IMG/VR virus record: IMGVR_UViG_3300036783_000100
Location: 1-42,535 of that record
Direction: 5' to 3' (one strand)
Source: a virus
Lineage: Duplodnaviria > Caudoviricetes
Length of the DNA stretch: 42,535 nt
In this document: in pieces, positions 1 to 42,455 of the stretch
Position numbering within the stretch: the first letter of the stretch is position 1
How the letters are laid out: the number at the start of each line of letters is the position of its first letter
Notes under the pieces: model-generated
Told to the model about the DNA's origin: nothing
The model's database searches: none
Seen by the model: the letters and a program-made list of their open reading frames with translations, nothing else
Translations under genes and position numbers: made by a program

Positions 1-351
1 TGCCTCCCTGAGATCGACCACCGACTTCTGCTCGTCCCAGTCGCTGACCGCGACGGCGTGCCGGAAGGCACTGACGACGAGGTTCATCGAGCGGAGGTTG
101 AGGATTTCCTCATTGCCCTCGAGGATCGTATTCCCAGTTACTCCGGCTCCGACCAGCCGCCGCAGCGCGGGGAAGACGACCGTGTCGCCGGATTTGCGGG
201 TGAGATCCTCGCGGACTTGTATTAGGGAGCCCGTGCTGGTCCCCATATATTTTGCGAACTGATTTCGGCGCACATACTCGCTAAAGAAATCACTGTCCCA
301 TATAAGTGGAGTCAGGCCTTGTCTGGCCGGTGTTACATTCATGTCCGCCAT
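1..351 (-). CDS. Major capsid protein, 5' part, intron-less allele (runs off the window edge)
   Basis: Manual translation from ATG 351 (SD AGGAG): MADMNVTPARQGLTPLIWDSDFFSEYVRRNQFAKYMGTSTGSLIQVREDL...DLREA, 117 codons. Amino acids are identical to the spliced copy at 40848-42210. Confidence 0.93.
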   Translation of the reverse strand, partial: MADMNVTPARQGLTPLIWDSDFFSEYVRRNQFAKYMGTSTGSLIQVREDLTRKSGDTVVFPALRRLVGAGVTGNTILEGNEEILNLRSMNLVVSAFRHAVAVSDWDEQKSVVDLREA

Positions 352-605
352 GCGGACTTCTCCTGTCGCTGAGGTTGAGGGGTTGCATTACGGATTTACT
401 TGTCAGCAACGCCCGTAACCTCGGCGGCAGGAGACGCCCGTTAAGCCCGGCGGCGGCTTGCACTGATGACGCGCAGTGCGACGCGGAACGCCCGGTTATT
501 CCCCCGGCGGCGGGGCAGGCACGGCACGCTATTGGTGGGACCGACACACTGGCATGCGCCGGTCCCTAACCAACGGACAGGAGTGACCAAGGCCGTTGGT
601 TATCG
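352..605 (-). ncRNA. Structured capsid mRNA leader (two hairpins, three tandem pseudoknot-like motifs, anti-SD hairpin), allele A
   Basis: Stem-GCCGCCG-stem-linker-GGGCGU occurs 3 times (489-515, 435-459, 410-431). Hairpins 537-566 and 567-602 covary with allele B. Confidence 0.7.
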
Positions 606-1478
606 CTACGCCTGGCGCCGCGCGTGCTGCGGCCTACGCAGGATGTCGTCCATTGAGGGCGGCCCGGTGAACGCCGTTGTGGTCCTACCCGCCATGCTGC
701 GCACGCCGGCGAGCGATGGCGCCATGCCGGCCACTGGCGATGGCCGCTGCGCGCCATTGCCGGGCTGCTGCGCCTCGGCCTCCCACTTCGTACGCTCCTC
801 GGCCACCACGCGCGCGCGGTAGGCTGCCGGATCGTCGCCGATCTCGGCGTGCGCGCGGAGGCGGTCGATCTCCTTGGTCATCCACGCGTAGGGCGACGCC
901 TGGCCATACAGCTTGCCCCACAGGCTCGGATCTTTGTCCGCATGCGCCTTGAAGTCGGCCACGTATTTGTCGAGTTCCGGCTTGCCGATTTTGTCGGTGA
1001 TCAGCGCCTCCGACATATTCAGCCGCTCGTTGAGCAGGTTCCGCTGGTGCTCCATCTGTAGATACCGGAACGCGCCGACCGGATCGATCGCCGGATCGGG
1101 CGGCGGCAGGTATTGCACCTGCGGCTGTGACGGCGGCGGCGGTGCGGCCTGCTGCTTCTGGAACGCCTCCAACTGCTGCGCCAGTAGATCCGCCTTGGCC
1201 TTCTCGGCAGCAGCCTTGGATTTCCAGTCATTGCGCATCTGCACGTGCGTTGCCAGCGGCACGGTGCGGTCAGCCATGTGTTCAGCAATTGCCGCGTCCT
1301 CGTCCGGCTCCTTAGCCTCGCGCGCCGGCTCTGGCGTGGGCGTGGGCGGCTTCGGCTCGCCGGGTTGTGGTTCGGGTGCCGGCGTCGGCTCGGCCGGCTG
1401 TGGTGGCTCCTGGGGCGTCTGCGGCATGGTCTCGCCGGGCGCGGCCAGAAACTGGTCGAGTGCTGCATTCTCTGCCAT
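606..1478 (-). CDS. Capsid scaffolding protein
   Basis: 290 aa, Pro/Gln-rich and helical, located between portal and capsid genes. Confidence 0.75.
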   Translation of the reverse strand: MAENAALDQFLAAPGETMPQTPQEPPQPAEPTPAPEPQPGEPKPPTPTPEPAREAKEPDEDAAIAEHMADRTVPLATHVQMRNDWKSKAAAEKAKADLLAQQLEAFQKQQAAPPPPSQPQVQYLPPPDPAIDPVGAFRYLQMEHQRNLLNERLNMSEALITDKIGKPELDKYVADFKAHADKDPSLWGKLYGQASPYAWMTKEIDRLRAHAEIGDDPAAYRARVVAEERTKWEAEAQQPGNGAQRPSPVAGMAPSLAGVRSMAGRTTTAFTGPPSMDDILRRPQHARRQA

Positions 1479-5963: not shown

Positions 5964-6665
5964 CTACGCGGCCTCTTGCGGTTGGAGCGTGTGGGTCGGT
6001 GCTGCCCCGCCGCCGGGCGCGGGGTGCGCGTCCGTCGCCTGCTTCACACGCTTTGGATAGGGCTTTGCCAGGGGCGCGATGCGTGCGCGCATTTCGGCAT
6101 CGAGGGGGAGTAAATAGCGGTGCTTAACCCCTGCAACAACACGCGCCGCCCTAGCGTCCACATGAGCGCGAAGCCACGGAACTGACTGACCACCAATCCC
6201 GTATCTAGAATGCAGCGTCTTGGGATGCACCATCACGCCACGCACACGATAAGCGTGTGTCTCGCTGCCTCCTGAGTAAAGCCACCCAGCAGCTTGATAT
6301 ATACCGCCGTGGTGACCTTGTGCTGTATCAGCAAACGACACGATTAGCCTAATTCCTGGGCAACGAGTGCGCAACATCGAAACGGCTATTCGGATAACCC
6401 GAGAAACAGCTGCACTATGCCGTGTCAACGCAATGCGCGTTAACTCGCACACCTGGGTTCCGTTCAGGCCGTATGGTCTGCACAATTCTGGCGTGGCGCC
6501 TTGGCCAAACATCACAGCGCCAACGAATTTGCCATCTTCCCACACGCCTAGCCTAACGGCCTTAAAGACGGGCGTTCTGCGGGAGTAGTGCCAACGCTCG
6601 CAGGCATATCGAGCAGCCGCGTGGCTACACCAATCAAGCCTCAGCTCAAGCTGGGCTGAAGACAT
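5964..6665 (-). CDS. Mom-family DNA (adenine) modification protein, GNAT fold
   Basis: WHYS, ELTRIAL and IVSFADTAQGHHGGIYQAAGWLYSG resemble phage Mu Mom. Start chosen at MSSAQLELRLDW. Confidence 0.75.
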   Translation of the reverse strand: MSSAQLELRLDWCSHAAARYACERWHYSRRTPVFKAVRLGVWEDGKFVGAVMFGQGATPELCRPYGLNGTQVCELTRIALTRHSAAVSRVIRIAVSMLRTRCPGIRLIVSFADTAQGHHGGIYQAAGWLYSGGSETHAYRVRGVMVHPKTLHSRYGIGGQSVPWLRAHVDARAARVVAGVKHRYLLPLDAEMRARIAPLAKPYPKRVKQATDAHPAPGGGAAPTHTLQPQEAA

Positions 6666-7173
6666 GGCCGCACTCTGGGCAGGTAACTGGCGCCCGCTCA
6701 TCAAGCCGCCCCTGTTGATCCTCGCCGACAGGAGCAAAGTCAGGTTCATTCAGTAAATCCGCTAGTTCATCATCGCTGAACCCGATCAGCGACACGTCGA
6801 AGTCCAGGCCACGCAGTGCGTCCAGCTCGCCGGCCAGCAGCGCCTCGTCCCAGCCGGCATTCAGCGCCAGCTTGTTGTCGGCGAGGGCGAGGGCGCGGCG
6901 CTGTGCGTCGGACAGGCCGGCGAGCGTGATGGTCGGCACCTCGGCCATGCCAAGGCTGCGCGCGGCCTCAAGGCGGCCGTGGCCGGCGATGATGGTGGCG
7001 TGCTCGTCGATCAGGATCGGGTTGGTCCAGCCGAACTCACGGACGGAACGAACCAGTTGCGCGATCTGGGCCTGCGAGTGCGTGCGGGCGTTGCGATCGG
7101 CCGGCGCGATTGAAGTAATAGGTGAGTAAATCACCGTAAGTCTTTTAGAATGCTCCAAGAAGTTGCCGCTCAT
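6646..7173 (-). CDS. ParB/Srx N-terminal domain protein with C-terminal Zn-ribbon half motif
   Basis: RNARTHS..QIAQL..S.REFGWTNPILID...IIAGHGRLEAA...ADNKL, ending CPECGHVF. Confidence 0.85.
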   Translation of the reverse strand: MSGNFLEHSKRLTVIYSPITSIAPADRNARTHSQAQIAQLVRSVREFGWTNPILIDEHATIIAGHGRLEAARSLGMAEVPTITLAGLSDAQRRALALADNKLALNAGWDEALLAGELDALRGLDFDVSLIGFSDDELADLLNEPDFAPVGEDQQGRLDERAPVTCPECGHVFSPA

Positions 7174-13303: not shown

Positions 13304-13575
13304 CAGGTCAAAGCCCCAGGCCGGTAAAGCGGCGCCTGCCCGCGCTCGGCGCGTGCGCACGCCAACTCCCAGGCCAGCGCCTCGCGCGCAGCGGCCAACT
13401 CGTGCGGCATACTCGGCCGGGGCGGCGGCGGCGGCGGCCCCGCCATACGCTGCAGCTTCATCTTCACCGCCAGCCTGGTACGCCCCAGCGCGTCGGCGAT
13501 GTCCTCGAGCGACACGCCCTCCGTGAGGCGCCGGCGGGCGCGCAGCACCTCAGCACCGGTCCACGGCCGGCTCAT
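13300..13575 (-). CDS. Small HTH protein (GcrA N-terminus-like)
   Basis: MSRPWT....GVSLEDIADALGRTRLAVKMKLQRM. Confidence 0.65.
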   Translation of the reverse strand: MSRPWTGAEVLRARRRLTEGVSLEDIADALGRTRLAVKMKLQRMAGPPPPPPRPSMPHELAAAREALAWELACARAERGQAPLYRPGALTW

Positions 13576-14015
13576 GCCGCGGCCTCCAGCCGCGACACCG
13601 GCCGGCGGACGTAGGCCAGGCGGACATGCACAGCGCAATACGGGCAGCCCGCCAGCGCCGGCGCGTCGCAGAAGCGGAACCCCTTGGTGCGCGGCTCACC
13701 GGTAGGCCATTGGCACGTCCGCACCACGGCGGGCACCGGCGCCGCGGGCTTGGGCGGCGCCTTGGGCGGCTTCTGCGGCTTGCGGGCCAGCGACCGCCGA
13801 TGCGCCTCCGCCAACTCCGCAGCGCCCCGTGGCGGCGGCGGTGGCGGCTGTGGCATGACGGCGCGCGGCGCCAGGTGCAGCCGGTGGACTTTGCCGAGCA
13901 CGGCGTTCTTGCTGTAGCCGAGCTGCGCGCCGATCGCCGCGGCGGTCAGATCCGTCTCCCACAGCGTGCGCAGCGCATCGCTCGCGTGCTCGGGCCACAG
14001 CACAGGCGCGCTCAT
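13572..14015 (-). CDS. gcrA: GcrA cell-cycle regulator homologue
   Basis: W...LRTLW...TAAAIGAQLGYSKNAVLGKVHRLHL and C-terminal CQWPTGEP...FRFC...PYCAVH...AY. Confidence 0.85.
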   Translation of the reverse strand: MSAPVLWPEHASDALRTLWETDLTAAAIGAQLGYSKNAVLGKVHRLHLAPRAVMPQPPPPPPRGAAELAEAHRRSLARKPQKPPKAPPKPAAPVPAVVRTCQWPTGEPRTKGFRFCDAPALAGCPYCAVHVRLAYVRRPVSRLEAAA

Positions 14016-14103
14016 GGCCGCCCCCAGCGCCGGTTGAACCGCTTCGCCCGCCGCATCGCGCGGCGCAGGACCACGGCAAAATACAGGCGCTCGAGCCACG
14101 CCA

Positions 14104-40847: not shown

Positions 40848-42210
40848 TTATGCGTCGGCCACGGCGGTGGTGAAGATGGTGAATATGCCGTTGTCGACCG
40901 GCTTCGTTGTGTCCACCGTCGGATCAACACCGAAGCGCAGTTTGCCGATGCCGCGGATTTCCTGCAGACCGACGCCGTGCATATATCCGTAGTCACGGGT
41001 ATTGGTCGTGGACTTCATCCGCTGCGCCCATGCGCAACCCAATGCCTGCGCGCCGCACAGGAACGAGGCCGCGACATCGACGCCGCCGGCACCGGCACCG
41101 GAAATGGTGACCAATTCGGGGATCTCACGGATGATGATGCCGTCGTAAATCAGGTCGCCACCGGTAAACAGCGGGTTATCCGTCCCGCGGTTCCACGCAT
41201 ATTGCAGCGCGTTGGTCAGCACCGGGTCGAGCAGCAGATCGCGAAACACCAGGCTCGGCATGAAGCAGACGAACCATTCCTCGTCGTCGTTGACGGTGAT
41301 GGGGCGGATGCGCGGATTGGCGGTGCGTGCCATGCGCTTGGCCAGCGTGAGGATCGCGGTGCTCATGCGGTCGCCTGGCGATGCCAGTGTGAGCAGCGCG
41401 GTCGCCATGACGCCGGATGCCGCGTTGGCCTTCTGGTGGCCGAACAGCACGCGGTCGGCGTTGTTGACCATCCACGTATTGCGCTGGCCGGCGGTGGCCG
41501 CGCCGTAGCTCACCTGCACGTTGTTGTCGGCGGTCATCGCCCCGAACGAGGTGATGATGTCCGTCCGCATCTTCTCGAGTTCCCAGGTCATCAGCGCCTC
41601 GCGCGCTGCCTCCCTGAGATCGACCACCGACTTCTGCTCGTCCCAATCACTCACCGCGACGGCGTGCCGGAAGGCACTGACGACGAGGTTCATCGAGCGG
41701 AGGTTGAGGATTTCCTCATTGCCCTCCAAAATGGTGTTGCCAGTAACGCCCGCGCCAACCAGCCGCCGCAGCGCGGGGAAGACGACGGTGTCGCCGGATT
41801 TGCGGGTGAGATCCTCGCGCACCTGGATCAATGATCCGGTGCTGGTTCCCATGTATTTCGCGAACTGATTTCGCTTTGCCTTCGCGCCGGATCGCTAGTC
41901 CGACACCGCCCTGCCGGGGCTGCTACCGATCGCTCGGTAGATGAGACCATATCACCACCCACTTGGGGTGCCGGGCGCTTCGGGCCGCTTGGCCCTACGA
42001 GCTTTCGCTCTGGTCGTTGCACCTTCCGCCTTGCGGCGGCTTGGCTCAGGATTGTCTGCGAGAGAGGTTCCCTGAGTTCACCCGGTTATCGACATCCATT
42101 ACTGGACGAAGGCGCCGAAGCAGTTAACGCACATATTCGCTAAAAAAATCCGAATCCCATATAAGTGGAGTTAGCCCTTGTCTGGCCGGCGTCACGTTCA
42201 TGTCTGCCAA
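40848..42210 (-). CDS. Major capsid protein (N4-gp56/DUF4043-like), split: exon 1 42127-42210, exon 2 40848-41873; 369 aa spliced
   Basis: IQVREDLTRKSGDTV, LEGNEE, RHAV, NPLFTG, LCGAQA motifs. Joining the exons reproduces the 1-351 allele exactly (TTG start, AAGGA SD). Confidence 0.92.
41874..42126 (-). ncRNA. Group I self-splicing intron (253 nt, no ORF, with P7.1/P7.2, IA-like)
   Basis: Exon ends in U and intron ends in G. P1 with U.G, P10, P3 CCGGGUG/CGCCCGG, P4 CUCAGG/CCUGAG, P7 GACCA/UGGUC, P8 and P9 can all be paired. Absent from allele A. Confidence 0.93.
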
Positions 42211-42455
42211 CGGAGTGTTCCTTTACTTCGAGGTTACGGGGTTGCTTCGGATATTTACTTGTCGGCAACGCCCGTAACCTCGGCGGCAGGAGACGCCCGT
42301 TAAGCCCGGCGGCGGCTTGCACTGATGACGCGCAGTGCGACGCGGAACGCCCGTTGCCCCCGGCGGCGGGGTAGGCACTTAGGCGAGGCCGGCGCCGCGC
42401 CAACAGCAGCCGGCCTCTAACCAACGCGAGGGAGTGAAGCCCGCGCTGGTTTTCG
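42211..42455 (-). ncRNA. Structured capsid mRNA leader, allele B
   Basis: Same three motifs (42348-42371, 42294-42318, 42269-42290). Flanking hairpins are diverged in sequence but keep their pairing. Confidence 0.7.

Follow-up and report, generated by a model that had tools for sequence, protein, structure and literature searches.

The window, by which the whole stretch of 42,535 nt analysed here is meant, is the 42.5 kb record of a tailed phage (IMGVR_UViG_3300036783_000100), whose minus-strand genes encode a terminase, a portal protein, a scaffold-like protein and a capsid protein of PHROG 334. The ends of the record overlap with differences, which provides two alleles of the capsid leader (A and B). 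In allele A, the 5' part of the major capsid gene (1..351, minus strand) follows the scaffold-like gene (606..1478, minus strand; 290 aa), which lies between the portal and capsid genes and was assigned by a family profile. Two variable hairpins 3' of the scaffold stop codon (537..602, minus strand) are, by comparison between alleles and relatives, not conserved together with the array described below; they appear to resemble the flank of HNH genes that are inserted there in relatives. In allele B, the capsid start codon lies at 42210, and the gene is interrupted by a group I intron of 253 nt without an open reading frame (41874..42126, minus strand; Rfam match), after which exon 2 resumes at 41873; the same junction is also present in the runs X1 and X2. 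At three other loci (L024, L032, L079), the capsid match exceeds the expected length by about 200-270 nt, which suggests insertions at another site than that of the window intron. A GcrA-like regulator gene (13572-14099, minus strand) hints at an alphaproteobacterial host, and ParB-like and Mom-like DNA modification genes precede the small terminase gene (5964-7173, minus strand).

The profile of the scaffold family, whose alignment is too variable for scanning loci, matches the annotated scaffolds of the cultured phages Pam1 and Pam5. The structural model of the window protein is all-helical (pTM 0.46) and gives weak matches to scaffolds; against the PDB, it had no match at E<=0.001 and no match to an RNA-binding fold.

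The leader between the two genes carries four small structures in direct succession. The initial annotation had described one unit occurring three times on the minus strand, with an invariant loop and tail and variable but paired stems, and these units are present as written at 515-488 (PK1; first stem, S1, of 4 bp, a 7-nt loop, linker and tail), 459-434 (PK2; S1 of 5 bp) and 431-409 (PK3; the weakest S1, 3 bp). Each was recovered by pattern and model match and is referred to here as type A. The units recur in allele B at 42371-42347, 42318-42293 and 42290-42268, and across the array the alleles differ in the linker of unit 1 only while the flanks diverge, as had been stated. The GCACUG/CAGUGC pairing between units 1 and 2, which had been taken for a hairpin, is more plausibly stem 2 of a further H-type pseudoknot, the fourth in the leader, with CGCG/CGCG as S1 (type B; 460..485, minus strand; S1 485-482/473-470, S2 479-474/465-460), both stems of which covary freely in relatives. 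Since the spacer is itself a knot, the window leader reads A-B-A-A, back to back, as does the array of four pseudoknots in allele B (42268..42371, minus strand). All six matches of the loop-tail pattern in the window fall into the two capsid leaders (100 shuffles: mean 0.22, maximum 2), and a model built from 80 units, one of them from the window, ranks the six sites first among 19 matches. The pairing between loop and tail can be read as 5 bp, joining the loop CGCCG to a tail made of C, a bulged G and GGCG; the C before the tail is found in 177 of 185 distinct type A units. Immediately 5' of unit 1 (518-529, minus strand), most close relatives share a conserved GUGCCGUGCC stretch, which is shorter in allele B. 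No sigma70-like promoter was found near the array in the window.

That the unit folds into an H-type pseudoknot, as had been proposed, is supported by compensatory changes of S1 and of the loop-tail stem (S2) in homologous sequences. When 55 distinct leaders, retrieved by the capsid protein alone, were scanned with a structure-first descriptor, 151 matches were obtained, comprising 140 with consensus loop and tail, 8 variants and 3 unrelated ones; three times as much coding sequence yielded no consensus-type match. In the alignment of 80 units, all four pairs of S1 show changes on both sides, 92% of the cells are paired, and the structure scores above all 500 shuffles and every slid control. 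Six rows of this alignment are misaligned by three columns, so that one of the three both-side changes in S2 and three U-G cells are artefacts. Real changes in S2 are G-C to A-U in 4 and C-G to U-A in 1 of the 185 distinct units, in a table in which several invariants are imposed by the descriptor and units were selected for complementarity. Of 80 loci scanned for the A-U variant, 29 have it in a unit whose stem closes, and 7 of these lie before scaffold or capsid genes and represent 5 distinct contexts; in one distant phage, both units carry it. The evidence for S2 thus comes from few events, and the count covers compensated variants alone. A type B knot was detected in 42 of 69 spacers of at least 20 nt (42/47 of those with at least 26 nt, 0/22 of those with 20-23 nt), with a search whose observed score is equalled by shuffles in about 4% of cases. 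The last unit of a leader tends to have the weakest S1 (median -2.9 vs -4.7 kcal/mol). Taken as predicted from these comparisons, the type A unit is a small H-type pseudoknot, a module of 25-30 nt. In some capsid leaders (L057, L058, L069-L072, L075, L076), the consensus loop is found in hairpins that lack a tail downstream and follow a stretch containing GGGCUG; these are possibly a variant or permuted knot.

A named RNA family had not been recognised in the leader, and this holds in a scan of Rfam 15, in which nothing in the leader matches at the gathering threshold, GP20-a, GP20-b and riboswitches included: the group I intron alone passes, and the best leader matches are miRNA models far below threshold. 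Likewise, no description of the type A motif was found in the literature searched. The closest candidates by position are GP20-a and GP20-b (RF02991, RF03003) and the csRNAs DNAVirus_3698 and DNAVirus_865, which, like type A, stand immediately upstream of phage genes as candidate cis-elements (PMC10690425). The two csRNAs are listed there before capsid_maj_N4 genes; compared by this listing alone, DNAVirus_865 (62 nt, soil and freshwater) could be the type A motif (PMC10690425). Likenesses to the loop pairing of the ZTP riboswitch and to luteoviral frameshift knots were dropped, as the order is reversed or the coding context absent, and the motif has no Rfam match.

Type A arrays are associated with head genes well beyond the window. 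Among 197 clusters with a downstream open reading frame, which are partly redundant because loci overlap between scans, 96 precede a capsid gene, 39 a scaffold gene and 62 other reading frames, the last being mostly single chance units, loci with short flanks or leaders interrupted by HNH genes. They recur in many unrelated phages, where the scaffold or capsid gene that follows belongs to one of three or more capsid families, and some phages carry them before both genes (L216, L281, L283). With a second pattern, 34 of 80 loci lay at the scaffold or capsid gene of the family of the window phage, and others before head genes of PHROG 1357 and of 371/133 capsids, at a locus GC content of 34-66%. 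Among cultured phages, Pam1, Pam5 and Pan3 have two units before the gene in scaffold position and CBW1004C-Prop1 has one, while model scoring gave no unit in KPP25, GP4, KLEP18-1 or RHph_Y1_10. Among the matches listed for short BLAST queries against cultured phages, only those in Pam1, Pan3 and one uncultured genome (two records) were intergenic. A loose tandem pattern was discarded because chance accounts for most of its matches (two structured units remained at 9 of 120 loci); a pattern scan of GTDB left 1 of 120 matches after the two-unit filter, and the 66 loci read for a third viral pattern contained 12 stem-closed units, 1 of them clearly at head genes. In Ralstonia phage GP4, a relative without the motif, a CsrA-like regulator is annotated shortly before the capsid gene (L455:1685-1882), a possible alternative form of post-transcriptional control.

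Units are also found in chromosomes. Three genomes of one alphaproteobacterial family contain at least 14 (G001), 12 (G928) and 41 (G931) model matches, counts that are lower bounds because only 150 candidates were scored; 145 of 151 alphaproteobacterial genomes have no match, and the 4 weak single matches that were read overlap long reading frames. The chromosomal arrays start about 15-25 nt after sigma70-like hexamers, as read by eye. They are followed by a capsid module, by a head-closure module or by DUF6371/DUF3987 primase-helicase genes that lie among ordinary genes. A switch that would sequester the AUG is not supported for these copies (3/21). The scaffold gene of the chromosomal cluster has no unit before it.

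In the capsid leader, the last unit faces a competing structure. The 5' strand of PK3, together with 434-432, is complementary to the Shine-Dalgarno sequence, and in allele A unit 3 cannot coexist with a rod of about 24 bp, formed by 434-406 with an anti-pseudoknot strand at 386-359 (359..386, minus strand) that includes the Shine-Dalgarno sequence at 364-360. The rod is predicted from folding and has a z of -5.7, with 0 of 100 shuffles as good. By calculation, it is about 27 kcal/mol better than the rest of a PK3-compatible fold, compared with about -13.5 for the stems of PK3 before loop penalties; because the rod outweighs PK3 by so much, PK3 could exist only as a kinetic or strongly liganded state. 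Holding PK3 lowers the cost of opening the ribosome-binding site in allele A from 20-21 to 9-11 kcal/mol. In allele B, the diverged downstream region still pairs with unit 3 and the rod is kept, yet the cost hardly changes (8.0-10.5).

This competition was examined in 104 distinct leaders, from which 18 with a mis-called start or last unit were dropped (L004, 017, 023, 024, 057, 058, 069, 071, 075, 076, 079, 080, 175, 234, 235, 240, 259 and the scaffold leader L216); several of these have variant 3' units, which lie outside the rod comparison. In 29 of the 52 capsid leaders, the last unit pairs with the region before the capsid start more strongly than in 99% of shuffles, while 23 miss this 1% cut; at a 5% cut, 36 pass and 16 miss, and the 52 leaders are mostly of one clade, so that all these counts overstate independence. 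In scaffold leaders, the corresponding number is 0 of 27. The rod has at least three sequence solutions (L001-type, L002-type and L217/L278-type), in which clades pair different parts of the unit. The median cost of opening the ribosome-binding site with the last unit free vs held is 16.2 vs 9.5 kcal/mol in 54 capsid leaders, and 5.7 vs 4.9 kcal/mol in 28 scaffold leaders. The spacing differs as well: the chain of knots ends 36-58 nt upstream of the start in 47 of 52 capsid leaders and 4-17 nt before it in 24 of 25 scaffold leaders. The latter is reached because long scaffold spacers are filled by a type B knot (11 of 12, with 2.2 expected), and in 4 of these 12, including that of Pam5, the Shine-Dalgarno sequence overlaps S2 by 3-4 nt. 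The array is intact but lies about 570 nt away from the capsid ribosome-binding site at 10 loci, where an antisense HNH gene stands between the two; such insertions between array and capsid start may be recent. In one clade, HNH-like antisense genes directly after the last unit were noted at L026, L027, L031, L035, L042, L044, L060, L066, L225 and L285, and in another clade, from leader sequence only, before the first unit (L001, L002, L007, L018). The flanks of the array look like homing hot spots.

Judged by its sequence, the leader seems to behave like known pseudoknot elements of translation but cannot, on present evidence, be assigned to any of their families. Its capsid layout resembles the 5' pseudoknot standby site of the E. 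coli tisB (+42) mRNA, an H-type knot upstream of a sequestered ribosome-binding site that is needed for standby of S1/30S at that site (PMC7708055). Such an arrangement is found in allele A and in the 29 capsid leaders with a rod, and neither in allele B nor in scaffold leaders. In timP, the pseudoknot form is translated and an alternative pairing locks the message off (PMC13000454, PMC11228461). However, the knots of tisB and timP are single, diverse in sequence and part of toxin mRNAs under antisense RNA control, whereas here a near-invariant unit belongs to a row of four knots in the leader of a phage head operon, for which no antisense RNA was found. The scaffold layout fits another group, in which a pseudoknot at or in the ribosome-binding site docks on the 30S subunit or serves as a protein operator: the rpsO pseudoknot docks on the 30S platform and is repressed by S15 (PMC3858243), and the operator of T4 gene 32 belongs here as well (PMC10690425). 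A structure that abuts or overlaps the ribosome-binding site is present in 24 of 25 scaffold leaders, while the window's own scaffold-like gene has no type A unit before it. In contrast to the capsid leader, which would act with the opposite sign, rpsO and gene 32 have repressive single operators for a known RNA-binding protein. Phage P22 likewise has its terminase, portal, scaffold and coat genes in this order and faces a like problem of stoichiometry, and its scaffolding protein is subject to translational autoregulation; as far as the accessible part of that account goes, no RNA structure is described and activation of coat translation is not included (bioRxiv 2022.12.13.520362).

Sequence comparison shows that the units exist and covary, that they stand before head genes, and that the last unit and the start region are complementary to each other in a conserved manner. 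The best explanation, which is favoured tentatively and falls a little short of an even chance, is a leader that controls translation in cis and whose last knot serves as a metastable ON latch. PK1, the type B knot and PK2 would form the platform for ribosome loading and protection. PK3 would fold first during transcription and hold the anti-Shine-Dalgarno strand, and 30S subunits would load before the rod, which would close from its inner GUUGC/GCAAC helix onwards, displaces PK3 and covers the ribosome-binding site; as in tisB standby, this loading would probably involve protein S1. Ribosome traffic would then keep the site open, and a lapse of traffic would lock the message off. We infer in particular that PK3 folds first, that this leaves a window for 30S loading and that opening depends on traffic. 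At scaffold genes, the chain ends 4-17 nt before the start without a rod, in the manner of the rpsO pseudoknot on the 30S platform. The latch is supported by the rod of the capsid leaders with its several sequence solutions, by the lower cost of opening the ribosome-binding site when the last unit is held and by the weak S1 of that unit. Against it stand the large energetic advantage of the rod over PK3, the nearly unchanged cost in allele B, the capsid leaders that miss the shuffle cuts, the intact arrays cut off from the capsid start by HNH genes and the chromosomal copies with no sign of a switch. A role that is independent of the gene fits the promoter-proximal chromosomal copies and the freely varying type B knots. 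However, S1-binding pseudoknots are described as diverse (PMC7708055), and the near-invariant sequence of type A is not explained by them.

Invariance of this kind is among the points in favour of a protein sensor of opposite sign, in which free scaffold or another head protein would stabilise type A, block its own ribosome-binding site and hold the capsid latch open, thereby balancing scaffold against capsid. This is rather unlikely, as is, to the same degree, its extension to a scaffold-sensing homeostat that would be common to several capsid families and would have been taken over by a domesticated phage cluster and by dozens of helicase cassettes in alphaproteobacterial chromosomes. It would account for a near-invariant, multi-copy unit, for the opposite geometry at scaffold and capsid genes and for arrays before both genes in some phages, and the autoregulation of the P22 scaffold also speaks for it. 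Moreover, among 20 loci scored with the model, all 6 strong matches to the scaffold profile (100-169 bits; L462 is in the profile itself) carry units and all 12 with no or weak match lack them, a co-occurrence that is confounded by kinship. However, units also precede scaffolds missed by the profile (L461 and about 9 further loci), L526 has a 78-bit scaffold and no unit, and chromosomal copies stand before helicase cassettes without a switch, while the scaffold gene of those chromosomes lacks a unit. The scaffold model has no RNA-binding fold match, and the energy gap between rod and PK3 is too large for an equilibrium switch. The units may, as the initial annotation suggested, be repeated binding sites for a ligand or protein. 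As units occur before non-matching scaffolds, other capsid families and helicase cassettes, a host partner or an intrinsic role fits at least as well as a phage protein. For a small-molecule or ion riboswitch, the least probable of the readings considered, the layout of aptamer and anti-Shine-Dalgarno strand would be apt, with tandem aptamers serving one expression platform and an invariant loop and tail with a bulged G. Yet Rfam gave no match, only a single GTDB match passed the two-unit filter, and the chromosomes (151 alphaproteobacterial genomes, GTDB pattern matches) show no metabolic gene theme; a small-molecule ligand is unlikely because no metabolic gene context was found.

Two further explanations place the leader in mRNA decay or processing. 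The array could be nothing but a nuclease roadblock, with tandem knots that stop 5'-to-3' decay by RNase J or scanning by RNase E, so that scaffold and capsid RNA outlive portal RNA and the rod is incidental or secondary. xrRNAs of flaviviruses likewise occur in tandem copies. RNase J is mostly absent from bacteria of the gamma/beta class, and units were found in 3 of the 8 alphaproteobacterial genomes with a window-type capsid that were scored, in 0 of 3 genomes of the gamma/beta class and in 0 of 2 such cultured phages, although these host numbers are tiny. The arrays sit at portal/scaffold and scaffold/capsid boundaries and where transcripts apparently begin, HNH insertion leaves them intact, and their invariant bases suit a tertiary fold. 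Like type A, the xrRNAs of plant viruses and flaviviruses are compact stem-loops plus a pseudoknot with conserved bases; they need the pseudoknot and block RNase J1, and a ring of 15-16 nt around the 5' end defines them (PMC8374639). The capsid-specific rod is left unexplained by a roadblock, which is regarded as unlikely. It is the rod, in turn, that a processing stem for RNase III would explain, since it is the minimum-energy fold by a wide margin: cleavage would free the Shine-Dalgarno sequence, as phage leaders of T7 and lambda are processed by RNase III, and the third pseudoknot would be a relic. However, the rod has several internal loops, and none of the type A features is lost from unit 3, whose S1 covaries and whose tail is present; this reading is regarded as very unlikely.

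Beyond P22, little is understood of how tailed phages adjust scaffold against capsid output after transcription. Here, a module of 25-30 nt is present in the cultured phages Pam1, Pam5 and Pan3, and its two layouts predict opposite effects. Should a leader controlling translation in cis act intrinsically, it would represent a portable leader of mini-pseudoknots with which genes could be highly expressed or mRNA protected; should it be sensed by a protein, phages would possess an ON switch that resembles a riboswitch and responds to a virion assembly protein. The many promoter-proximal copies in three related chromosomes point, moreover, to an unstudied domesticated phage system. In the latter (G931:C4:208000-234000, G928:C34:361000-388000 and G001:C884; L473, L557, L560, L696, L697), a terminase-portal-scaffold ... 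capsid-cement-adaptor-head closure cluster is broken by ordinary genes and adjoins a MATE transporter gene, with a promoter and a pseudoknot array before the capsid and head-closure modules. An earlier reading of the capsid module as lacking a scaffold was wrong for G928 and G931, where terminase, portal and scaffold lie upstream; in the fragmented G001, the scaffold was not found. The cluster looks domesticated and is possibly GTA-like. In addition, a DUF6371/DUF3987 primase-helicase gene forms a cassette with a promoter and a pseudoknot array at many dispersed sites (L527-L556, L558-L564, L491-L494), with no integrase nearby in the stretches scanned. Several copies of the cassette without the gene keep repeated short motifs, which may be origin iterons.
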